The notes below the pieces were generated by a model. The model was not told where the DNA came from and did not search any database. It saw only the letters and a program-made list of their open reading frames with translations. A program made the translations under genes and the position numbers. Positions 3,308 to 41,934 of a stretch of 41,934 bases of DNA are shown in pieces. Location: the IMG/VR virus record IMGVR_UViG_2541047821_000007; one strand, given 5' to 3'. Source of the DNA: a virus. Lineage: Duplodnaviria; Heunggongvirae; Uroviricota; Caudoviricetes. Positions within the stretch are counted from its first letter, which is position 1. Each line of letters begins with the position of its first letter.

Positions 3308-3883
3308 CTACGGCAGTGCTGGCCATTCAATATCCTGTGCAGTTGACGTATCAACACGGTTCAGCAATACCCGATACTTTTTCCATGCTTCCAGCAACGA
3401 GATTTCTTCCTCCGTTGCAATTTCCAGATCTGCAGCATCCTGAAGCGGCGCAATATGCTCACTGGCTACCTGCATCAGGTTGTTTTTTGTTTCTTCCGCC
3501 TCCCGGATCCGGAACAGTTTTTCTGCTTCCGTATCCTTCACCCAGGCTGTGCCGTTCCACTTCTGAAACTCCCCTTCCGGGGATAACCAGGTGACATTTT
3601 CCGGTAATGGGCCAAGTTCAGAAATAAATAACGCGTCGCCGGAAGCCACGTCATAGACGGTTTTACCCCGATGATCTTCAACGAGATGCCACGATGCCTC
3701 ATCACTGTTGAAAACAGCCACGAAGCCAGCCGGAATATCTGGCGGTGCAATATCGGTACTGTTTGCTGGCAGACCTGTATGAGGCGGAATATATGCGTCA
3801 CCTTCACCAATAAATTCATTAGTTCCTGCCAGCAGATTATAAATTTTTATGGTCCGTGGTTGTTCACTCATTCTGAATGCCAT
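3308..3883 (-). CDS. tfaQ: tail fibre assembly protein (Tfa)
   Basis: 191 aa, [26 protein letters not shown]...; start overlaps stf stop; conserved Tfa C-terminus. Confidence 0.85.
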
Positions 3884-6798
3884 TATGCAAGCCTCACAAT
3901 GTAGTTAAATGCGATGTTTTTGACAGTGTTTTCCGCGTTACCAGCAGCGTTAACGGTGATGGTGTGTCCATGTGAGCCAATCGCAACAGAGTGCGTATGA
4001 GCACCAATACCGACAGTATGTGCGTGAGCACCTGCAGATGCAGCTGTGCCGCTGACACTATGAGTGTGCGCTCCTGCAGCACTTGTATTCACACTGGCCG
4101 CAGACACTACCTTATGTACTGACCCATTTTGTGACCACTGGCTGACTGCTGATGCGCCTGTGACACTATGAGTATGGTTTCCGGCACTTGCGGCTGTACC
4201 GCTCACACTGTGCGTATGCGCCCCGGTGTTATTCGTGGATTTAGTGCCGTAATCAAACGACGATGTGGTTTTCGTCCCCAAATCCGTACTGGATGCACTG
4301 GCGCTGTGGGTGTGCGATTTAATGCCGTCCTGTTCCTGAGACAATACGGCCCGACCACTGGCAGGTTTGCCCTTAATCGTCCAGCCACGCATATCAGGGA
4401 TCACGCCTGACGGATAAGCGGTTGCAAGTTTCGGGTAAGCGGATTTGTCAAAAGTCTGCCCCTGCATCAGGGCATAACCAGACGGAACGGTATCTGATGG
4501 CCACGGGATTGGTGCGCCAGGCGGATAAAACTGCTCTGATGGCGTATAGAGTGAATAAACTGTACCGTCCGTTAACCCTTCCGGCTTATTAGCAGAATAT
4601 GCTGGTGACGTATGAATAGTCACGCTGGCATTACTGGTATAATCCCATTGAATATTTACACCAGTCGCATAATTTCCGATTGCAACGTAAATATCGTAAG
4701 TATCACCAGATGTATTGACCCAGGCAAAATTTGTAAACCCTGTCGATGTGCGCTGCCATAAAGCACCAGTAATCCCCTTCGGATTACCATTACCTGCACG
4801 CAAAACAAGTTCAGATATACCTGCCTGTTGAGGTGACCCCACGTTAAATCCCGCGCCACCAATCAACGTAATTGAAACAACAGAACTCGCCTGTGGCATG
4901 GTTACCGTTGCTAATTTGAACCAACCAGCACCACCGCTGAATGACATTGTTGTTGAGTTAAGCGTACCAATATCTTTCGGCGTCAGTGTTATATCCGCTG
5001 AAAGCGCCTTACCATTCACCTTACGGGCAGAAGGTACCCGACCATTCGCATTATCATTAGCTGCTTTCACTGCTTTCGGTGTCGCGGCAAGCGTTTCAGA
5101 TGCGCTGTTGGTTGCACTACTGAGCTGGACAATTCCTTTTTGTGCTGTCGTAGCGTCCTGAGCAGTATATTTCCCGTTAGCAAGGTCATAGGCTGCCTTT
5201 ACCGACTTTGGCGTTGCCGCCAGCATTTCAGATGTGCTGTTGGTCGCGCTGCTGAGCTGAACTATCCCTTTTTGTGCTGTCGTTGCATCCTGTGCGGTGT
5301 ATTTCCCGTTAGCCAGCTCATACGCGGCCTTAACGGCTTTTGGCGTTGCCGCCAGTGACTCGGAAGTGCTGTTAGTCGCACTGCTGAGCTGTACTATCCC
5401 CTTTTTCGTCGTGCTCGCATCCTCAAGCGCCACGGCGGATGCAATATCCTCTGCCCGTTTTGCCGCTGTCTCGGCGCGCGTTGCCGCGGATTCCGCCGTA
5501 CTTTTGCTCTGAGCTGCCGCCGTCGCACTGCCAGCTGCCTCTGTCGCCTTCGTGGATGCCGTCGTGGCGCTGCCCTTTGCTGCTGACGCCTGTCTGGTCG
5601 CCTCATCTTTTGAAGCAGACGCAGATGATGCCGATGACGCCGCCGAACTGGCGGACGATGCGGCAGCCGTTTTTGAGGATTCTGCGCTGGTTTCCGACGC
5701 TTTCGCGTTCGTCTCGGATGTCTTCGCTGCGGAAGCAGACCTCGCTGCTGCGCTGGCCTGTTCAGTGGCTTCGCCAGCCTTCGTTGTGGCTGTTGAAGCG
5801 GACGATGCGGCGCTTTCTGCCGATTTTCCGGCAGCGGTGGCACTGGCTGAGGCCTGCCCGGCACTTGTTGACGCGGCACTGGCAGACGACGCAGCCGCTG
5901 TTTTTGAGCCTGCCGCAGCTGAGGCGCTCTGTCCCGCTGCCGTCTCAGAAGACCTGGCGTTCGTCTCGGACGTTTTTGCCGCCTTCGCGGAATTTGCTGC
6001 CGCCGTTGCCGAGGAAGCTGCGCTACTGGCGCTCGAGGATGCGTTCGTTTCTGATGATTTTGCCGCCTCTTTTGAAGCCGACGCATCCCGGGCTGAGGTG
6101 GCAGCTTCTGACGCTTTCGTGGTCGCGGTGGATGCAGAAGTGGCGGCTGATTGTTGTGACGCTGCAGCATTCGTTTCTGACGTTTTCGCGGCAGCGGCAC
6201 TGGTAGCTGCCGCGCTTTTTGAGGACTCTGCAGCGGCAGCACTTTTTTCCGCTTCAGTGGCCTTTGTTGATGCCGTTCCTGCGCTGGAAGACGCTGACTG
6301 AGCCGACGAAGCGGCCTGTCCGGCTGACGTGCTGGCTGCACGTGCTGAATCTGCAGCATCAGTCGCATGGGTTGCCGCCTCACGGGCAGATGTGCCGGCA
6401 TCACTGGCTGACTTCTTCGCGGCTGCCGTGTTCTGTGCCACCACGGACGCGTTACGCGCCACCTCTTCCACCATCTGTTCAAAACGGCGCAGTGCCTCCG
6501 GACGGGCATCATCCTCCGTCATGGCACCGAGAAAATCATTCAGCGTACCGGGTTGAGAATCTTCATACACGGTGATGGTCCCGGCATGTGACGGCGGGAA
6601 TCCTTCCACCAACAGAATAACGCTGTACTGCCCGTACTCAACGTCCATGCTGTAACGCCCGGCTTCATCCGGATTTTCTGAGGCCAGCGTGTTCACCACC
6701 ACCGTGGTGCTGTTACGTTTTGCTTTCAGCTGGATTGTGCAGTTCTGTACCGGTTTTCCTGTGCCGTCTTTCAGTACACCTGAAATCTTTACTGCCAT
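3883..6798 (-). CDS. stf: side tail fibre protein (Stf) with Ala/Ser-rich low-complexity stalk, three 44-aa tandem repeats and His-rich C-terminal domain
   Basis: Track ORF begins at GTG 6804; ATG at 6798 preceded by GGGGTG; N-terminus [27 protein letters not shown] is lambda Stf-like; follows lom and precedes tfa. Confidence 0.85.
5037..5410 (-). repeat. three tandem ~132-bp in-frame repeats inside stf
   Basis: Protein repeats [15 protein letters not shown](S/M/T)LAATPK(A/S)[18 protein letters not shown] at residues 468, 512 and 556; matching DNA repeat visible directly. Confidence 0.8.
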
Positions 6799-7528: not shown

Positions 7529-10930
<3,402 letters not shown>

Positions 10931-28054: not shown

Positions 28055-28325
28055 GATGTTACCGTAGTATGTGAGTATCCATCGAATAGATACCAAGCAA
28101 AAAAGCTCCCGAAGGAGCCTTCATTTTCACTTTTTTAAATCCAACGACAGACGGCTGGCATTTAAGTATTGTGAAATATTATCAAATGTAATCATCATTG
28201 ATTTACAAAAGATACATTTTGCCCCGAAAGGATTCATGTCAGAAACATCAAAAGATGATGTTCTATACTGGGAACCATGACAACACGGGCATCTAAAGTG
28301 AATATGGTTTGTAATATTGTCTACC

Positions 28326-28538
28326 TCAAAGCGCCACTACATGAACAGCGGCAGGACCTTTAGGTCCGTTCTCAATACCAAATTCAACTTCCTGATTCTC
28401 AGTTAATGTTTTGAAATCGTTGCTCTGAATTGCTGAGAAATGGACAAACACATCTTTGCTGCCATCTTTCGGCGTGATGAAACCAAAACCTTTTTCAGGG
28501 TTAAACCATTTCACTAAACCAGTCATTTTGTTAGACAT
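28326..28538 (-). CDS. cspI: cold-shock protein CspI
   Basis: 70 aa; KGFGFI and VFVHF RNA-binding motifs. Confidence 0.9.
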
Positions 28539-28901
28539 AATTATTACCTTTTGAAGAAATTAGCCCTTGGGCAGAATGGTCCGAAAAAAAATATCAGAGA
28601 GAAAAACCAACAAGGAAATCTCAAGAGGTACAAATAATAAAATTATAACAATGACTGCTTCAGATAAATTTGTAACAAACCAGAACACCATTAACGCATG
28701 ATTAACCACCCATAGCAAGGATTACTTTTGTAAAGAAAAACACAGCAATGAAAGAATAGCTTTATTTATTAATAATAACGTGTCATTCTGATTAAGACCT
28801 TTTATCTTACCCTTAAGATTTCAGGAATTTTGGCTCATGGAAGAGTCCTTTTTATTTAAATTTTACATTCCGCGATGTAAATGTTCCGATTTAATATTAC
28901 C

Positions 28902-30930: not shown

Positions 30931-31210
30931 AGATTGTGGTGCTTTTTGTGGGAGTCATCCACTTACGCACTTTGTTTTGCCATGCCAGCAGTTAGCTTCT
31001 GCTGTAAAACTATTCATGCAGCAAACCTGCACTTCACCACAATGGTTAGCATACTTTTCCTGATTAAGATTTTGCCAAATATGCTAGCCATTGTTTCATG
31101 TATTGGACCTCCTTACTTTTTATTAAAGAGATCCAATATTCACTACTCTGTCCGTATCTCTACTCAGGCATCAGCCTTCTTCGTTATCGTATACAGACGA
31201 GCGATGAATT

Positions 31211-31426
31211 TTAATCAGTAATGATGACATTTGCTGCTGCAGGACCTTTAGCACCACTCTCTATAGAGAAGGTAACCTTTTGACCTTCAAATAAGGTTCG
31301 ATAATTATCATTCTGAATCGCAGAAAAATGCACAAACACATCTTTACTACCATCAACAGGAGAAATAAAGCCGAAACCTTTATCAGCGTTAAACCATTTT
31401 ACTAAACCAGTCATTTTATTTGACAT
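31211..31426 (-). CDS. cspB: cold-shock protein CspB
   Basis: 71 aa; [23 protein letters not shown]... Confidence 0.9.
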
Positions 31427-31726
31427 TCTACATTCCTTAACTTGAGCCTTTCGGCATAAATGGTTTGCATAACAGAAACGACTTCGTACTTAATTGGAGA
31501 GACTCAAAGAAGGAATAAGTGAATAACACCTGAAATGAGAACTGCTTTAGTAAACTACTTCGTATATCGTCTGTTCTTCAAACCGACGCAATCATTAACG
31601 CATAGTTGAACATATGAAGCAATGTTTATTTTAGACATCCAGCCATCTTCAACCCCATCAAAAAACTATAGCTTTCTTCAGGAACGTGTGTATAGTGCGC
31701 CAAGTTATCAGTATTAAGGAATTTTT

Positions 31727-32360: not shown

Positions 32361-33113
32361 TTATCTCGTCACCTTCCTCAATTGCGCTTCCGCGTATGCT
32401 TCTTCCTGCCAGCACTTTGTTACCAGTTTATCAATGACGTCCGCATACCCCTTATACCACTGATAATCGGTCAGGTCTGGTACCAGCTTCTGGACATGAC
32501 GTCGTGCCAGCGTGGTCGGTAAACGACTAAATCGGTTTCCATTACAACGCCCACAAATCTTATATACCGGTACGCCATGAAACCGGGTTCTTTTTTCATC
32601 CAGAACAATCCCTTTACCCTTACACCCTCTGCACGCTGTGCTGACTTCGCCCTTACCATGGCAATGCTGACATAGTTCCTTCACCCATTCTTCCTTGATT
32701 ACAGATTCCCCGCGTCTGTAGTGTTTCACCACTTCGCGCAATACATTATAAAATCCCGTACCTGAACAATGCTCACAGCGAGCCTTACTTGCCGCAGACC
32801 TGGAGTAATCAGCAAAGGCAAAATTCACAAGGTAAGGAATAATCTGTAACCGGATTTCTTCACTCAATTTGTTCAATGTCGGGTTATCCAGTGCCATCGC
32901 GTAATTTAGCAGGCCTTCAATCGCAAACTGAGGGTCCTGAACACCAACTTTTGCCAGAAATAAGGCCAACCCAAGTGGTGCTTTCGACTGCACCATCCCC
33001 TGCGCTGCCATTACATCCGTAATTGTTAAACAACCGGTGCCTGTCGCTGGAGCGTCATCGCTCAATTTTGGAGATTTTGGGGAGTAATATTTTGGTAAGG
33101 CTTCAAGGTTCAT
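32361..33113 (-). CDS. quuQ: late-gene antiterminator Q (phage 21/82 type)
   Basis: 250 aa; Cys/His clusters (CEHCSGTG, CQHCHGKGE, CRGCKGKG, CGRCNG). Confidence 0.8.
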   Translation of the reverse strand: MNLEALPKYYSPKSPKLSDDAPATGTGCLTITDVMAAQGMVQSKAPLGLALFLAKVGVQDPQFAIEGLLNYAMALDNPTLNKLSEEIRLQIIPYLVNFAFADYSRSAASKARCEHCSGTGFYNVLREVVKHYRRGESVIKEEWVKELCQHCHGKGEVSTACRGCKGKGIVLDEKRTRFHGVPVYKICGRCNGNRFSRLPTTLARRHVQKLVPDLTDYQWYKGYADVIDKLVTKCWQEEAYAEAQLRKVTR

Positions 33114-34990: not shown

Positions 34991-35146
34991 TTACTCCTCA
35001 GGTTCGTAAGCTGTGAAGACAGCGACCTCCGTCTGGCCGGTTCGGATTCGTACCTCGCAGAGGTCTTTCCTCGTTACCAGTGCCGTCACTATGACGGTTA
35101 AACAGATGACGATCAGGGCGATTAACATCGCCTTTTGCTGCTTCAT
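34991..35146 (-). CDS. hokD: Hok-family type I toxin
   Basis: 51 aa: MKQQKAMLIALIVICLTVIVTALVTRKDLCEVRIRTGQTEVAVFTAYEPEE; GGAG 9 nt upstream. Confidence 0.85.
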   Translation of the reverse strand: MKQQKAMLIALIVICLTVIVTALVTRKDLCEVRIRTGQTEVAVFTAYEPEE

Positions 35147-35361
35147 AGCCTGCTTCTCCTTGCCTTTCGGCTCGTAAGAGGCTAACCTACATGTGTCTAG
35201 CATGAAATTGGCCTCAGATTAATGTTAAGCGTCTTGCAGGACGCGTAATGTTAACTGGGGCTTTTCTCTATCTGCCTTTGGTGTTCATGCCCGAGGCAGA
35301 TAGCCTCAAGCACCCGCAGCCATTCTACTTAACTACCGTTACCTCGCCAATATGAAATCAG

Positions 35362-35565
35362 TCAGAAAGGCGATCCATAAGAACAATAGCAAGACAATAA
35401 ATCGCCATTACAGCCGTAATAGCCAGCGCACATTTGAGAACCAGCACCACAACCTCCTGTATTGGACGTAGACCAGTCCTGATGAATATGAGGCTGTCTC
35501 GTCAGTGATTCAATACAACTATTGGGTATAGTTTCTCTGATTTTTTCTGTGGAAATGGGGCACAA
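35362..35565 (-). CDS. hypothetical Cys/Gly-rich 67-aa ORF
   Basis: Track ORF only; 7 Cys and Gly-rich tail; no clear RBS. Confidence 0.2.
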   Translation of the reverse strand: MCPISTEKIRETIPNSCIESLTRQPHIHQDWSTSNTGGCGAGSQMCAGYYGCNGDLLSCYCSYGSPF

Positions 35566-35879
35566 CCACTAGTCACCACCAGCACTTCTTTTAATACGCA
35601 AAGTCCGACACAAGCTAACCTTCTAGTCCGCTTTGAGCGAAAAACAGCCATAATTTAGTGCCACGTATATAATGATAGAGCTATTCAAGCTAGCAATTCA
35701 CATGTAAAAATTCAGAGGGTAGAAGCACATAGTTATAAATGTTGGCTCCATCGACAAATTGCGGTCTCAAGTACATTTATTAATGTTGCCCCCGCATTAA
35801 CAAATCATCAAGGTGACGACATGGGGTGATGCTGCCAACTTACTGATTTAGTGTATGATGGTGTTTTTGAGGTGCTCCA

Positions 35880-36155
35880 GTGGCTTCTGTTTCTATCAGC
35901 TGTCCCTCCTGTTCAGCTACTGACGGGGTGGTGCGTAACGGCAAAAGCACCGCCGGACATCAGCGCTATCTCTGCTCTCACTGCCGTAAAACATGGCAAC
36001 TGCAGTTCACTTACACCGCTTCTCAACCCGGTACGCACCAGAAAATCATTGATATGGCCATGAATGGCGTTGGATGCCGGGCAACCGCCCGCATTATGGG
36101 CGTTGGCCTCAACACGATTTTCCGCCATTTAAAAAACTCAGGCCGCAGTCGGTAA
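35880..36155 (+). CDS. insA: IS1 InsA
   Basis: 91 aa, [46 protein letters not shown]... Confidence 0.95.
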
Positions 36156-36577
36156 CCTCGCGCATACAGCCGGGCAGTGACGTCATCGTCTGCGCGGAAA
36201 TGGACGAACAGTGGGGATACGTCGGGGCTAAATCGCGCCAGCGCTGGCTGTTTTACGCGTATGACAGGCTCCGGAAGACGGTTGTTGCGCACGTATTCGG
36301 TGAACGCACTATGGCGACGCTGGGGCGTCTTATGAGCCTGCTGTCACCCTTTGACGTGGTGATATGGATGACGGATGGCTGGCCGCTGTATGAATCCCGC
36401 CTGAAGGGAAAGCTGCACGTAATCAGCAAGCGATATACGCAGCGAATTGAGCGGCATAACCTGAATCTGAGGCAGCACCTGGCACGGCTGGGACGGAAGT
36501 CGCTGTCGTTCTCAAAATCGGTGGAGCTGCATGACAAAGTCATCGGGCATTATCTGAACATAAAACACTATCAATAA
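36074..36577 (+). CDS. insB: IS1 InsB (made as InsAB' by -1 frameshift at the A6C motif)
   Basis: 167-aa ORF overlapping insA; slippery TTAAAAAACTC at ~36124-36135. Confidence 0.9.
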
Positions 36578-36596
36578 GTTGGAGTCATTACCCGAC

Positions 36597-38384
36597 ATGG
36601 ACGATATTAATATCAGCCTCGACGAACTTAACACTATTGATTTATCCCCCTTAATCCAGAGTAAGCTGCCAGTTACCTGCTTTGATATCACAAAGTATCT
36701 TTCTAGCCTAGGTGATGGAAGAGCGGAGATAAGACTGCTAACCCATATTTGCGGTTTTCACTTTCGTCCCGAAAATCCACAGGTACCATTTGGTCCGTGC
36801 TTTCAAAGCAGCCAAGGTAGATCTGCAATTCCGGATGACATTAACGGGTTGTCGCTGGAGGTACTTTCTCAATTTTGCCCGACGATAGAGCTACCCGAAC
36901 TTCAAGCTCGTATTGCTGATACACTTTGGGTTCGTAAAATTGGTGGAATCCGTTTTCCTTTGCTGGCAGTCCGTGCTTATTATGCGTCCAGTATAGCTAT
37001 TATGACATCGCAAGGGACGTGGGTTAGTGCTTTAGAACGCCTAGAGCGTGCGCTTAGGCTGTGTTGTTTTTTTCGAAAGAATACTGATTTCAGGGATGAA
37101 TTTGATCAGCTTTCGGCACATCTACTAGCAGAGTATGAACGTACCAGAGAACAAGGCGATTCACCTTATCCGCTGCGACTCCTGCAACTCGATATCGACT
37201 GTAAAGTGAGTGAGCCATCTTTTATTGCCCAGGAACTCCTGTTTCTGACAAAAAACTATCTGGCTCAAAAATTATTTTCATTTGCCGTCGATGCCTGTAA
37301 AACCGCAATCACGATTGCGAATAGGTGCTGTGACAGAGATACACAGTTTGAATTCTGGCGGCTTCTTGCCGATACACATCTGGAAGAGTCAAAATTCCAA
37401 GATGGCGGTATGATTTCGGCAGCCTGCATGCAGAATGCTATTGAAGCACTGGCTAATATTCCAGGAACCCGAATAGAACGTCTTGCGCTGTATGAAGAAA
37501 TGCGTGATTACCAAATCGAATCCCGTCACCAGATGTCTATCCTTCAGTCTCCCCCTCAAGATATTAGTGAGATTGTCCATCAAGCCAAGAGTCGGGTAGT
37601 CGGAAGAGATATGTTTGATATGGTTTTCAGACTTGCGATGCTGGTCTGTCGGCCAACCAGCATTGAGAGACTTAAGGCTCAAGCAATAGAACAAAAGGCC
37701 AACAGCATAGCTTGGATGTTTGGATCAACACATATTGATCATGAGGGAATGACACTTGCTCGCATACCCGCAGGATTGGGGATTGATGATGCAAATGGGG
37801 CAGTTATTTGGCCCATAATGATGACGAGAATGCGTATCGACCATGAGTTGGCAGTAGCTGGGCAAATTATTCCTGCTACAGATGAGATCACAATGAAATA
37901 TCCAATCTCGGAGGCGTTTTTTCGCGATATGTTCATCAATCATCCCTTCATCCCGTTTGGGCATGAAGAGTTTTTCATCAAGGGTATGGTTTGCGGTTTC
38001 AATGGAGATTTTATGACGGCATGCCACGTGTTGATTCCCCAGATCGAAAATAGTCTGAGATATGTGGCTAAAATTAAAGGTGAGGAACCATCGCAGCTTC
38101 ACGGGGACGGTTCGCAAGAGCGAAATGGACTCAAGGGATTACTAGATAATCCACTGATTATTGAAGCTTTCGGCGTAGACATAATTGGCAATCTTCAGGC
38201 CTTACTGGTAGATAAAATCTATGGTGATTTACGAAATCAACTAGCTCACGGATATGTGCCTGCCGGTTACTACAATCAACCTCCCTGCATTTTTGCATGG
38301 TGGCTTGTATTGCACATTCTAATGAACCCTACGGCGAGATACTGGCAAGCCACTTATGGCCAAGAGAGTGAGGCTCAGACTTAA
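36597..38384 (+). CDS. 595-aa protein of unknown function with C-terminal HEPN-like R-x4-H motif; candidate abortive-infection/defence protein
   Basis: ATG 36597 lies inside the IS1 target duplication (track start is a TTG inside IS1); LRNQLAHG at 38232-38249; mostly helical composition, no Walker A; opposite strand to the early operon. Confidence 0.6.
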   Translation: MDDINISLDELNTIDLSPLIQSKLPVTCFDITKYLSSLGDGRAEIRLLTHICGFHFRPENPQVPFGPCFQSSQGRSAIPDDINGLSLEVLSQFCPTIELPELQARIADTLWVRKIGGIRFPLLAVRAYYASSIAIMTSQGTWVSALERLERALRLCCFFRKNTDFRDEFDQLSAHLLAEYERTREQGDSPYPLRLLQLDIDCKVSEPSFIAQELLFLTKNYLAQKLFSFAVDACKTAITIANRCCDRDTQFEFWRLLADTHLEESKFQDGGMISAACMQNAIEALANIPGTRIERLALYEEMRDYQIESRHQMSILQSPPQDISEIVHQAKSRVVGRDMFDMVFRLAMLVCRPTSIERLKAQAIEQKANSIAWMFGSTHIDHEGMTLARIPAGLGIDDANGAVIWPIMMTRMRIDHELAVAGQIIPATDEITMKYPISEAFFRDMFINHPFIPFGHEEFFIKGMVCGFNGDFMTACHVLIPQIENSLRYVAKIKGEEPSQLHGDGSQERNGLKGLLDNPLIIEAFGVDIIGNLQALLVDKIYGDLRNQLAHGYVPAGYYNQPPCIFAWWLVLHILMNPTARYWQATYGQESEAQT

Positions 38385-38602
38385 AGTGAATAAGTTTACG
38401 AAGTTGGCACTTCCGGATGCATGTCCATATGAGTTGAGGCGATTTGGTTAATAAGGTTGAGTGCTGCTGAAATTATTCGATGTCCGCTTTTGGCACAAAG
38501 CGGACAACCACGCCAGATCTACCCTGTGCCATGAAAAATGAGAATGTCAATTCACTCCTGAACTAATGCTTTTTAATCTAGTAACGTCTAAAATACCTAA
38601 CA

Positions 38603-39004
38603 TTATCCCTGATAAAATGCCAGTATGCGCTGCATAACTTCACTCATCCGGCACTCGCGACAGATTATGTTTAGGCGACTGTCGTAGCGACGTATTTCTC
38701 CATCAGGTAACGACCAGATAAGGTCCGGATCAACCACAGCTGTTTTCTTCACCTTTGCCCTCGAGAGTTTTTTGCGGGCGTTTTGCCAGTCCTTACGCGC
38801 CTGTTCAGACGGGAATAACCCGTAGCCGGAGTTGTATACATCGCCACTGGCTACCAGCTCTCTGGCAAGAACGCTCATCAGATATCTAGTCGCACCTGTT
38901 TTAGCTTCCAGTTGCCGTAACGTCTCACGACCGCTCTGGCGCACGAGTTCCACCACCTGCCCTTTAATTTTTTCCCGCTCTTCTTGTGTAAAAACTTTTG
39001 CCAC
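38603..39004 (-). CDS. hypothetical 133-aa protein downstream of the replication initiator
   Basis: Track ORF; basic central region; convergent with the 595-aa gene. Confidence 0.45.
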   Translation of the reverse strand: MAKVFTQEEREKIKGQVVELVRQSGRETLRQLEAKTGATRYLMSVLARELVASGDVYNSGYGLFPSEQARKDWQNARKKLSRAKVKKTAVVDPDLIWSLPDGEIRRYDSRLNIICRECRMSEVMQRILAFYQG

Positions 39005-39044
39005 AAGTCCCCCTTAAAATTACCTCATGACCTGAAATCAAAAC

Positions 39045-40010
39045 TTATCCTCTGAAACCAGGCGGAATTTCTGTATCCGGTTCAGAAATATGATTAACAC
39101 AACGCTGTACAGGTGAACGCCCCAGGCGGATGACCAGTTCGTCCCATTTTTCGCGGAGCTTTGACGGGCTCATGATGTTTTTTACCCAGAATGGATCCCG
39201 CTGTACCCGACCAAACATTTCACAAATTTGTCTGTGGCTTCTGCCATCCAGCATCCGCATTGTGCGCACATCATTGGCCCAGACAGTCCAGTTAGGCTCT
39301 TTTGGTCGCATGATCTCGCCATCATCACTGGCGGCCTGTTCGTAGAGACCCACGATCCGCCCCCATATCCACTGCGCACACGCCAGATCCTCCTGGCTAC
39401 CCCACTGGCGTTTTTTCGCACTAAACACAACTGCGCCAGGGTGCCGGATTAAAAAATCCTGTTCAGCCGTCTGCGGGTCCGGTTGCGAAGCTTCCGGACG
39501 AAAAGTGTTTTTATTCTCTGTAGTAATCTCTGTTGTATTCTCTGTAGGATCATCGGGCCATTTTGACCCGATGACATTGGGTCGTTTTGAACCAATGGAG
39601 CGTTTCATTTTGACCTCTTCCATCGTGTCATTTTGACCTGATGGAGCGGCGCATTTTGAACCGATGGATTCGCTCAATTTGCCATCATCTAAAAGCTCGC
39701 TTCCATAGTTAATCGTGTAGAAATTGGTCATATCGCGCTTTGATTTATTGAGCTTTTCACAACGCAAAAGCCCCAGCGTTTTCAGACTTGCAAACGCGCG
39801 CTTTAACGTTGACTCTGACCAGAATGGGAACTGTTCCAGCCATTGTTCCGTTGTGTTGTAAATCCAGCGAACACCATCACATTCCATGCCGGAATTGGTA
39901 TCTCTCAACCAGTAATGCAACTGCTGCAACACAATGGCTTCATTTAAGCCAATCTTCATCGCAAGCTGTGTGTTTATAACCAGTGGGCGTTCAGCAAAAA
40001 GAAGGCTCAT
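39045..40010 (-). CDS. replication initiator, phage O/DnaD-like, with internal origin iterons
   Basis: N-terminus MSLLFAERPLVINTQLAMKIGLNEAIVLQQLHYW typical of phage replication proteins; iterons inside the coding region; track start 40064 is TTG, ATG at 40010. Confidence 0.7.
   Translation of the reverse strand: MSLLFAERPLVINTQLAMKIGLNEAIVLQQLHYWLRDTNSGMECDGVRWIYNTTEQWLEQFPFWSESTLKRAFASLKTLGLLRCEKLNKSKRDMTNFYTINYGSELLDDGKLSESIGSKCAAPSGQNDTMEEVKMKRSIGSKRPNVIGSKWPDDPTENTTEITTENKNTFRPEASQPDPQTAEQDFLIRHPGAVVFSAKKRQWGSQEDLACAQWIWGRIVGLYEQAASDDGEIMRPKEPNWTVWANDVRTMRMLDGRSHRQICEMFGRVQRDPFWVKNIMSPSKLREKWDELVIRLGRSPVQRCVNHISEPDTEIPPGFRG
39559..39672. repeat. five iterons, consensus CATTTTGA(A/C)C(C/T)GATGG, 22-24 bp period (candidate ori)
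   Basis: Copies at 39560, 39584, 39608, 39630, 39653; encode repeated (S)IGSK in the protein; three TCTCTGT(A/T)G repeats at ~39514-39546. Confidence 0.7.
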
Positions 40011-40512
40011 AATTCCATCCAGCTTTTTGTTGGTATTGCTGTCGATACGCAAGTTTGAAAGCAATTGCTTTTTCTATAAGTTCGTCAGTTTCACGATCCA
40101 CTACGGCAGGATCAGCAAAAAGCAGTCCGGACTCCACCACATCGCCATATTCTTTGTTTAACCCGGCGATCATGTACGTGATGCTTTTTCCGTCACTAAT
40201 TTCACGATACAACCTGAAATCATTAATCCGGATAGCCTCCATAATTGCAGGCACTAGCGCCGTGAACTTTTCACGCTTATCCCTGGTGTCGATAGCCTTC
40301 CAGCGTTCGAATATCTTCACTCGATTAACGCCAAGCGCTCGCTGATCAACCGCGCCACCTTCATCTGTGACACGCTGAACATCGATGTTCGGGCGCTCTT
40401 TCAAAGCCCAGAATGCTTCAGTGATTAATATCGTCGCCTGCTCCTGTGTCATTCCTGGTCGACATATCCAGGCATCCAGAGCCTCACGAGCCTGTTCAGG
40501 AGTGATTTTCAT
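39991..40512 (-). CDS. YdaT-like early protein
   Basis: 173 aa; KIFERW...ALVPAI pattern resembles Rac YdaT; follows the Cro-like gene. Confidence 0.5.
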   Translation of the reverse strand: MKITPEQAREALDAWICRPGMTQEQATILITEAFWALKERPNIDVQRVTDEGGAVDQRALGVNRVKIFERWKAIDTRDKREKFTALVPAIMEAIRINDFRLYREISDGKSITYMIAGLNKEYGDVVESGLLFADPAVVDRETDELIEKAIAFKLAYRQQYQQKAGWNYEPSFC

Positions 40513-40723
40513 TGTTCAACCGCCCCGCCCGCTTCGTCTTACGATATTCGTCATAAACCTTGGGATCATACAGAAGCTCGCCGCCAGATGCCTCCTGTAG
40601 ACGCATCGCGCGACCTTCAGGAACCAGCTCTTGCCATTGAGAAACAGCAGATGGGTCAACGCCAGCAGCTTTCGCTACTTTGGCTTTCGTACCGTAAAAA
40701 TTAATTACGTCTGATTTAAACAT
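40496..40723 (-). CDS. dicC: DicC/YdaS-like Cro-type regulator
   Basis: ~75 aa from ATG 40723 (GGAGGTG SD); divergent from the repressor. Confidence 0.7.
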   Translation of the reverse strand: MFKSDVINFYGTKAKVAKAAGVDPSAVSQWQELVPEGRAMRLQEASGGELLYDPKVYDEYRKTKRAGRLNNENHS

Positions 40724-40735
40724 CGCACCTCCAGT

Positions 40736-40751
40736 ATTGAGTTTTCTCAAT
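40736..40751. promoter_or_regulatory. operator-like inverted repeat in the dicC-dicA intergenic region
   Basis: ATTGAG-TTTT-CTCAAT; the 11-mer AGTTTTCTCA(T) recurs at 41273-41285 and inverted at 41309-41319. Confidence 0.5.
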
Positions 40752-40800
40752 GCTAATCACTCAAGGAATCTCAAGTCAAGGGTTATTAAGATATCTAAAT

Positions 40801-41208
40801 ATGAACGAGAAAACTTTAGGTCAACGCATTAGAGAAAGACGTAAGCAGGTAGGTTTAAGTCAAAACGGTTTAAGCAAAGCTGCTGGCGTATCTGGCTCAT
40901 CAATTTCATTATGGGAAAGTGACCATACAGCCCCGCGCGGGCAAAATTTGCATCGCCTCGCCGAGGTATTGCAATGTTCACCAACCTGGATACTGTTTGG
41001 CGACGAGGACAAAACACCAGCTCCCCCTGTTTCACTCGATAGTGCCTTAGACTTATCGGAAGATGAGTTAGAGATGCTGCGTTTGTATCGCGCACTTCCT
41101 AAATCAGAGCAACAAGCACAACTCAGCGAACTCCGCGCCCGCGTTGAGAATTTTAATCGCCTGTTCACCGAGCTATTAGAGGCTCGCAAACGCAACAAGC
41201 ATCAATAA
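40801..41208 (+). CDS. dicA: DicA-like XRE-family repressor
   Basis: 135 aa from ATG 40801; HTH LSQNGLSKAAGVSGSSISLWE; VLQCSPTWILFGDEDK motif. Confidence 0.8.
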   Translation: MNEKTLGQRIRERRKQVGLSQNGLSKAAGVSGSSISLWESDHTAPRGQNLHRLAEVLQCSPTWILFGDEDKTPAPPVSLDSALDLSEDELEMLRLYRALPKSEQQAQLSELRARVENFNRLFTELLEARKRNKHQ

Positions 41209-41272
41209 TCATCCCTTCACAAAATTTTAAAGCCTTACATTTCAATGTATTGGCTTTATCTTGCGCCAATAC

Positions 41273-41324
41273 TTGAGTTTTCTCATCAAAAAGCCTTGAC
41301 GAAAAATAATGAGAAAACTAAATT
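41273..41324 (+). promoter_or_regulatory. candidate promoter with flanking operator half-sites for the ydfA-ydfB-ydfC operon
   Basis: TTGAGTTTTCTCA (41273-41285), -35 TTGACG (41296-41301), 17-nt spacer holding inverted copy ATGAGAAAACT (41309-41319), -10 TAAATT (41319-41324). Confidence 0.5.
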
Positions 41325-41400
41325 ACCTCCATCAACACACCGCACGGTGTTCTCAGCAAACAGTTCCGCTACCCCGGCGTTAAGGGGAAATGAGGTCAGC

Positions 41401-41556
41401 ATGGATACTATCGATCTTGGCAACAACGAATCTCTGGTGTACGGCGTGTTTCCAAACCAGGACGGCACGTTCACCGCAATGACGTATACCAAAAGCAAAA
41501 CGTTTAAAACCGAAAATGGTGCCCGTCGCTGGCTGGAAAGAAACTCAGGTGAGTGA
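41401..41556 (+). CDS. ydfA: YdfA-like small protein (51 aa)
   Basis: ATG 41401 with GAGGT SD. Confidence 0.6.
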   Translation: MDTIDLGNNESLVYGVFPNQDGTFTAMTYTKSKTFKTENGARRWLERNSGE

Positions 41557-41557
41557 T

Positions 41558-41686
41558 ATGGATTTCGACACAATCATGAAAAAGGCTTACGAAGAATACT
41601 TCGAAGGCCTTACCGAAGGCGAAGAAGCTCTCAGCTTCAGTGAGTTTAAACAGGCGCTTTCCAGCTCGGCAAAATCTAACGGCTGA
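41558..41686 (+). CDS. ydfB: YdfB-like small protein (42 aa)
   Basis: ATG 1 nt after the ydfA stop; not in track (<60 aa). Confidence 0.5.
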   Translation: MDFDTIMKKAYEEYFEGLTEGEEALSFSEFKQALSSSAKSNG

Positions 41687-41715
41687 TAAGCGAAGCAGCA
41701 CCGCGAGGAATCAGT

Positions 41716-41934
41716 ATGCAGAAACGAGAACCCGTCATCATCGCGCCAGACTATACCGATGATGAACTTTATGAGTGGATGCGCCAGAAAATTAATGCAG
41801 CGCAGGATCTGAAATGGGCCAATGAAGCCAGGGCTAAGCAGGCTGAAAATCTGTCCGCTCTGGAGCAGGATATCACCAGGCTGGAAAAAGCAGCGGCATT
41901 AAGCATTGCCAGAATGATTACATACCAGCGTTAA
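41716..41934 (+). CDS. ydfC: YdfC-like protein (72 aa)
   Basis: Complete ORF ending at the window edge with TAA; coiled-coil C-terminal half. Confidence 0.55.
   Translation: MQKREPVIIAPDYTDDELYEWMRQKINAAQDLKWANEARAKQAENLSALEQDITRLEKAAALSIARMITYQR

Follow-up and report, generated by a model that had tools for sequence, protein, structure and literature searches.

The DNA analyzed here, IMG/VR virus record IMGVR_UViG_2541047821_000007 (Caudoviricetes; 41,934 nucleotides (nt), the whole of which we call the window), is a full-length lambdoid prophage at the Qin (ydfJ) locus, and it carries a complete copy of the insertion sequence (IS) IS1 placed exactly at the start codon of a gene for a 595-amino-acid (aa) protein. 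This protein is a predicted HEPN RNase, and its gene is a candidate anti-phage defence gene of the PDC-S39 type. The open reading frame (ORF) itself is intact, and its ribosome-binding site now lies on the other side of IS1, an arrangement that probably leaves the cell with little or none of the HEPN protein.

Insertion of IS1B at the start codon

The ends and the length of IS1 were verified by direct reading of positions 35500-37200 and by script. Members of the IS1 family are ~768 bp long with ~23-bp imperfect terminal inverted repeats, and the copy in the window has both properties, its left and right inverted repeats (IRL and IRR, respectively; Table 1) standing at the exact ends of the element. 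Over 768 bp it is 100.0% identical to many E. coli copies annotated as 'IS1-like element IS1B family transposase'. This identity, the Pfam domains of InsA and the open InsAB' frame of 232 aa that a -1 shift at the A6C site would produce all agree with a preliminary description of this DNA, made from its letters and ORFs, in which insA and insB had been called intact. The IS1 copy is intact, and its identity to active copies suggests that it is also transposition-competent.

On either side of IS1 stands a copy of the octamer CGACATGG. The bases bordering the two copies are unequal on both sides (A against C on the left, G against A on the right), which fixes the length of the duplication at exactly 8 bp and excludes the 9-bp duplication that is the commoner outcome for IS1. 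Two fixed positions would share 8 bp by chance with a probability of 1/65,536. Duplications of 8 or 9 bp are made by IS1 (PMC10359306; PMC12903888), and the length found here is normal for the element, because 8-bp duplications made up ~22% of the trapped events and 362 of the 1,345 natural ones (PMC10359306). The empty site was reconstructed by deleting IS1 and one copy of the repeat, and a 1200-bp query spanning it was compared with E. coli genomes; the match was 100.0% over all 1200 bp in each of the 40 E. coli chromosomes listed, and at least 80% of the query was present in 147 genomes. Alignment of the window by blastn with the IS1-free genome WP7-S17-ESBL-01 resulted in two blocks (1-35824 and 36593-41655), which overlap in that subject by exactly the 8 duplicated nt. 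The preliminary description had reported a perfect 8-bp duplication around IS1 and had proposed that it be compared with IS1-free alleles and its boundaries aligned independently; both comparisons returned the same octamer, with the empty site found at 100% in other E. coli genomes. IS1 begins with five bases (GGTGA, 35825-35829) that are also those of the native Shine-Dalgarno (SD) sequence (35812-35816), 13 nt before the insertion point, and this shared 5-mer may be due to chance; short homologies to the ends of IS1 near its insertion sites have been described in older literature.

It might be argued that IS1, a repeat, was misplaced here by the assembler. IS1 is indeed multicopy (an E. coli genome holds it in a median of 11 places), and the allele was found nowhere else. 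However, a perfect 8-bp duplication of a single-copy target at the exact inverted repeats is the signature of transposition, and a mis-join would not make it, so that we regard the chance of an assembly artefact as close to negligible.

The duplication contains the true and sole possible start codon of the 595-aa gene. In IS1-free alleles the Prokaryotic Genome Annotation Pipeline (PGAP) starts the 595-aa 'DUF4209 domain-containing protein' (WP_000340970.1) at the ATG within the duplicated octamer. In the empty-site sequence the nearest in-frame stop upstream is a TAG at 35656, and between this stop and the ATG there is no in-frame ATG, GTG or TTG; downstream, the next in-frame start is codon 85. 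Furthermore, the Pfam DUF7380 match begins at residue 4 at profile position 4, and all 22 full-length homologues (25-97% identity; from Enterobacter, Citrobacter, Vibrio, Aeromonas, Shewanella, Pseudomonas and cyanobacteria) start no more than 2 residues from this methionine. An alternative start codon is ruled out by the ORF logic together with the homologue alignment. The earlier placement of the gene's ATG inside the duplication is therefore borne out by the PGAP start, the ORF logic and the 22 homologues, and in the IS1-free alleles compared the gene does not begin elsewhere.

The insertion was searched for in several collections. A junction-spanning query detected IS1 at this site in none of 5,426 complete E. 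coli genomes, 151 of which carry the gene at 99% identity or more. The exact left junction was absent from a collection of species-representative genome contigs, the exact right junction was absent from a collection of metagenome contigs, and none of the 24 contigs read that encode the 595-aa protein had IS1 at the start codon. Additionally, the ~40.9 kb of flanking sequence differ by only 6 single-nucleotide polymorphisms (SNPs; 4+2 mismatches) from the IS1-free prophage of WP7-S17-ESBL-01. Taken together, the perfect duplication, the 100% IS1B identity, the near-identical flanks and the absence from the searched genomes point to a very recent event, as had been proposed in the preliminary description, and by these comparisons the insertion is very young and private to its lineage.

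Expression of the displaced gene

Homology with a 97%-identical prophage allele of Enterobacter hormaechei sets in 195 nt before the ATG, at position 35626, and the E. coli and E. hormaechei cassettes share 94% DNA identity (35626-38505; 7843-9909 in the E. hormaechei locus). On this homology the gene is one that travels as a self-contained cassette ('moron'), and its own promoter must therefore lie within 35626-35816. A consensus promoter scan of that region returned no full sigma-70 match. It does contain a perfect -10 hexamer, TATAAT (35668-35673), which is conserved in the E. coli and Enterobacter alleles and which we take as the putative native promoter. A second candidate -10 (35734-35739) falls within a 44-nt segment missing from Enterobacter; this 44-nt indel (35733-35776) and a 7-nt duplication make up the difference between the 5' leaders of the two alleles.

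The native SD, AGGUGA, forms a duplex of -8.3 kcal/mol with the anti-SD and stands 4 nt from the AUG, and the left copy of the duplication retains it (GGTGA, 35812-35816), as the preliminary description had said, although with a spacing of 4 nt instead of the 5 nt given there. What this SD now serves is a two-codon stub, ATG GGG TGA (35821-35829), which ends within the IS1 end exactly as earlier read. Before the displaced AUG at 36597 the best pairing with the anti-SD is GGAG (36581-36584), which had likewise been noted at its 12-nt spacing; its duplex is -5.9 kcal/mol, and it lies in a small predicted hairpin. In the promoter scan the sole promoter-like site on the + strand within IS1 was pIRL at the left end of the element, and there was no outward-facing promoter-like site near IRR. 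The IS end and the AUG are 4 nt apart, too close to accommodate a -10 and a leader, so that a hybrid promoter cannot form, and a hybrid or outward IS1 promoter driving the gene was rejected on these grounds. From the 4-nt gap and the lack of an outward promoter it follows that a transcript of the gene has to run through the full 768 nt of IS1.

The course of events that we favour is as follows. A resident IS1B copy transposed very recently, in the lineage of this strain, into the prophage cassette, with a staggered cut on CGACATGG, start codon included, and repair then duplicated the 8 bp. This left the coding sequence untouched and split the translation-initiation region, so that the native promoter region and the strong SD now drive just the two-codon stub, and the full ORF is displaced 776 bp downstream, behind the right end of IS1. 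Transcription begun at the native promoter, or at pIRL, which is weak and repressed by InsA, would need to pass through the entire element, with its ~420 nt of rarely translated insB' frame and the terminator reported for IS1, before ribosomes could initiate at an AUG served by a 4-nt GGAG 12 nt away. That terminator is reported in PMC12095673, which cites Hubner et al. 1987. The effects described for IS1 are gene inactivation and, less often, activation through fusion promoters (PMC12903888). We therefore consider it probable that IS1 at the start codon has caused the HEPN protein to be lost or strongly reduced, so that a candidate defence gene would have been knocked out or knocked down naturally in this allele. 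The sequence comparisons establish the structure, the site and recency of the insertion, the start codon and the integrity of both IS1 and the ORF; silencing of the HEPN gene, the most likely outcome, is an inference, as is any view on whether such silencing was selected or neutral.

Several points weigh against this interpretation. IS1 is co-oriented with the gene, which makes some read-through mRNA plausible, and the intact ORF, the GGAG and an in-frame TTG at 36579, 1 nt after the insB' stop, would permit low-level translation. IS1 ends can supply a -35 to hybrid promoters, according to PMC12095673 (citing Prentki et al. 1986). Some residual expression may thus persist, because IS1 is co-oriented and the ORF intact. 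For the same reason the earlier statement that the insertion separates the gene from its promoter and ribosome-binding site needs to be divided: the SD is split off, but the promoter is separated by distance only, and co-oriented read-through could bridge that distance.

These points could also be read as a rewiring of the HEPN gene, in which IS1 would give it low-level or newly controlled expression tied to IS1 activity and to repression by InsA. Transcripts would arrive by read-through from the gene's own promoter and from pIRL, and ribosomes would either use the GGAG or, having terminated at the insB' stop (TAA 36575-36577), re-initiate at the in-frame TTG 36579 or at ATG 36597. Such a reading is in keeping with the common orientation of IS1 and the gene, the completely intact ORF, the available GGAG with its -5.9 kcal/mol duplex, the TTG lying in frame with the gene only 1 nt past the insB' stop, and the fact that IS1 sometimes activates neighbouring genes (PMC12903888). 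However, a 4-nt SD at a 12-nt spacing is poor; the insB' frame is reached by rare frameshifting only, so that coupling would be very weak; IS1 is reported to hold a terminator (Hubner et al. 1987, as cited in PMC12095673); the promoter scan gave no outward promoter-like site; and a 601-aa TTG-initiated product is on record in no assembly. We therefore judge rewiring to be unlikely.

As in the IS1 fusion promoters (Prentki et al. 1986; bgl, flhDC; cited in PMC12903888 and PMC12095673), the IS1 end lies directly before an intact ORF; in contrast to them, the AUG is 4 nt from the IS1 end, the target supplies no -10 or leader, and there is no outward site, which makes activation of the HEPN gene by an IS1 promoter unlikely. 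The insertion resembles nfsA::IS1R of clinical isolates (PMC8767348) in that a full-length, reference-identical 768-bp IS1 is flanked by a short direct repeat and loss of function is expected. It differs in that the coding sequence is unbroken here, with the SD split from the ORF by duplication of the start codon, and in that the duplication is 8 bp, a minority outcome (~22-27% of events; PMC10359306), rather than the 9 bp of nfsA::IS1R. As to the kind of event, it is already known: this is a textbook IS1 insertion with no new mechanism. Every structural claim of the preliminary description has held, and its interpretation is supported.

The interrupted gene as a candidate defence gene

The 595-aa protein is identical to WP_000340970.1 of the IS1-free alleles. 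Pfam searches returned DUF7380 (E=2e-34) and DUF4209 (E=3e-8), the latter match (PF13910) scoring 34 bits against a gathering cut-off of 22.3 over residues 484-573. DUF4209 is the C6orf70-type HEPN family, which is predicted to be catalytically active and is often fused to TPR repeats (PMC3710099). The HEPN Rx4H motif, R546-x4-H551 (RNQLAH), is invariant in 23 aligned sequences down to 25% identity, as are E484, N485, S486 and R488. The AlphaFold (AF2) model has a mean confidence (pLDDT) of 87 and is nearly all-helical; Foldseek comparison of the whole chain with the PDB, in which the C-terminal domain was not queried alone, resulted in weak TPR-like matches (best E=3e-3, TM<0.25). No solved structure of any sequence relative and no NCBIfam model for the protein were found. 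These sequence features lead us to predict a HEPN RNase.

Two PADLOC profiles for PDC-S39, PDLC05012 (E=8.4e-103) and PDLC05011 (E=2.6e-102), match residues 43-581, and the gene occupies a prophage moron slot in the window, which is the kind of mobile or defence-rich setting associated with such a candidate. The literature located on PDC-S39 presents it as a predicted candidate only, and contained no functional test. The label of defence gene is given because of the PADLOC candidate model and the HEPN homology; the earlier wording, 'candidate defence gene', is accordingly appropriate for the match and the homology and should be taken to mean a candidate and no more. The sequenced-phage collection contained no match to the gene. 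A V. cholerae homologue with 45% identity (8001-9785 in three V. cholerae loci) occurs in a small variable islet that also holds one short ORF lacking annotation and is bordered by two housekeeping genes, a tauE-like gene and carB; since this homologue sits between housekeeping genes, the PDC-S39-type family is not confined to prophages.

In the E. hormaechei lambdoid prophage the cassette is found in the same prophage slot, co-oriented with the early genes, and its neighbours include a TIR_2-domain gene, two acetyltransferases, DinI and a cloacin/immunity pair. Like the morons that lambdoid prophages carry between their replication genes and Q, the cassette in the window is self-contained and follows a Ren-like gene; unlike those morons and other defence cargo, it is antisense to the early operon, and its defence function is predicted. 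Between the convergent HEPN and Ren-like genes a canonical intrinsic terminator was sought, and only a 10-bp hairpin without a T-run (38481-38506) was detected, which is a possible terminator.

The HEPN gene has been disrupted in other strains as well. In three complete genomes it is broken by IS1203 at ~38036 (window position; 5040-6346 in the locus compared). In the short-read assembly ERR3955984 the HEPN homology ends at ~37605 at an IS629/IS1203-like end, TGAACCGCCCCGGGAATCC..., and in the short-read assembly SRR23075504 it ends at ~37703 at a different, IS3-family-like end, TGATCCTACCCACGTAATATGG... (TGATCC...); these two IS-end alleles come from loci L008 (3694-3723) and L010 (1522-1550). 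A few genomes have deletions in the gene. Counting the present IS1, there are at least four independent IS alleles. The use of the product names 'DUF7380' and 'DUF4209' as a proxy for broken alleles was dropped, since 100%-identical intact genes carry either name.

Recurrent IS disruption of the HEPN gene fits the known pattern in which IS insertions inactivate defence genes, with IS1 and IS10 in cas genes as examples (PMC10359306). As in those examples, a resident IS has entered a gene, here a candidate one, acting against mobile genetic elements, and is identified by its target-site duplication; in contrast to them, the target is a predicted single-gene candidate (PDC-S39) on a prophage and not CRISPR-Cas. 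One could go further and suppose that the HEPN gene is self-toxic or exacts a cost, that IS elements shut it down time and again, and that IS1 at the start codon is a selected and potentially reversible 'off' state; rare precise excision between the 8-bp repeats may then restore the ORF, or read-through of IS1 and InsB' termination may keep a trickle of expression. Were this so, IS1 would act as a switch on a prophage defence gene and not as a dead-end mutation. We give this extended proposal only a slim chance.

If the gene is silenced, as we favour, the strain offers a ready-made natural knock-down of an uncharacterised single-gene HEPN candidate, PDC-S39, for which near-isogenic IS1-free relatives exist (6 SNPs in the 41 kb prophage). 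It would also be one further example of IS elements disabling defence genes. For annotation, it is important that the intact-looking ORF is called as a normal gene, so that a probably unexpressed system would enter the inventories drawn up with PADLOC or DefenseFinder.

Prophage context and transcription toward Q

Prophages of several E. coli isolates are 100% identical to the window over 24.9 kb. The genes and elements around the insertion are given in Table 1.

Table 1. Features in and around the interrupted cassette (window positions).
Feature	Position	Strand	Basis or remark
Q-like antiterminator (ydfT)	32361-33113	-	PGAP of IS1-free prophages, PHROGs
Cassette 5' part, native 5' region of the DUF7380/DUF4209 gene	35626-35816	+	Enterobacter homology
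Native Shine-Dalgarno AGGTGA	35811-35816	+	Conserved in Enterobacter allele
Left copy of 8-bp duplication, CGACATGG	35817-35824	+	ATG at 35821
Complete IS1 (IS1B type)	35825-36592 (768 bp)	+	Co-oriented with interrupted gene
IRL, GGTGATGCTGCCAACTTACTGAT	35825-35847	+	Script
pIRL-like promoter	35832-35859	+	Promoter scan; left end of IS1
insA	35880-36155	+	GTG start; Pfam Zn_ribbon_InsA and HTH_Tnp_IS1
A6C frameshift site	36131-36137	+	Slippery TTA-AAA-AAC
IRR, reverse complement of GGTAATGACTCCAACTTATTGAT	36570-36592		Script
insB' frame, end	TAA 36575-36577	+	Pfam DDE_Tnp_IS1
Right copy of 8-bp duplication, CGACATGG	36593-36600	+	ATG at 36597, still joined to ORF
595-aa ORF, intact	36597-38384	+	N-terminal DUF7380, helical TPR-like middle, C-terminal DUF4209/HEPN
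Cassette 3' end	38385-38505	+	Enterobacter homology stops 121 nt after stop codon, at ~38505
10-bp perfect hairpin	38481-38490 / 38497-38506		Without clear T-run
Early rightward operon: Cro-like, CII-like/YdaT, O-like replication protein, Ren-like DUF977	38603-40723	-	PGAP, PHROGs
Ren-like/DUF977 gene	38603-39004	-	

Early transcription of the prophage proceeds leftward; it crosses the HEPN gene and IS1 in antisense and continues in the direction of hokD, rem, ydfU and the Q-like gene; beyond the HEPN gene the minus-strand order is hokD/sok, rem, a small ORF, ydfU and the Q-like antiterminator. The preliminary description had placed IS1 in the path of early transcription toward Q, and the geometry is as it stated, but the early transcript has already crossed ~1.8 kb of HEPN gene, antisense, C-rich and untranslated, when it meets the element, and any further effect of IS1 is unproven.

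The principal effect of the insertion could instead be sought in the prophage, with IS1 acting as a polar block on the minus-strand early transcript before the Q-like gene, so that late-gene expression would be lowered and the prophage helped to lock in. The gene order is suitable (cro, the cII-like, O-like and ren-like genes, then the HEPN antisense with IS1, followed by hokD, rem, ydfU and the Q-like gene), and the minus-strand RNA has one C-rich/G-poor window at the far end of IS1 (35902-35803) and a weak terminator-like hairpin at 35965-35951. However, IS1-free prophages already cross ~2.4 kb without a minus-strand ORF (38385-35204, made up of HEPN antisense and intergenic sequence). A C/G scan in 80-nt windows detected many C-rich/G-poor windows in 38500-37000 and only one such region at the far IS1 end, and those many windows, together with the hairpin at 38481-38506, all precede IS1. 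Expression of Q must therefore already use antitermination or another promoter, either of which would cope with IS1 too, and nothing similar was found in the sequenced-phage collection. Whatever permits normal Q expression would probably also deal with IS1, and we treat an effect on Q as a minor, unproven rival drawn from geometry; that it should be the main consequence of the insertion appears very unlikely.

The annotations of related prophages show no N-like gene on the right-hand side of the repressor. The hokD toxin gene (34991-35315, - strand) carries an Rfam sok/hok-leader match at 35141-35315 (116 bits), with a promoter-like site at 35350-35322 beside it and, unlike in K-12 Qin, no relBE alongside.

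The right end of the window (41656-41934) departs from the two near-identical prophages compared, that of WP7-S17-ESBL-01 among them, and resembles the K-12 Qin-type ydfA-ydfB-ydfC arrangement (best match 99.2%), which indicates, as far as these alignments go, a mosaic junction inside the gene after ydfA. Finally, Rfam matches above the gathering score included an IS009 RNA (3342-3540, - strand) in the tail-fibre/pinQ region and two cspA-type thermoregulator leaders (28299-28684 and 31195-31587, - strand) upstream of cspI and cspB, the cold-shock genes of the prophage.

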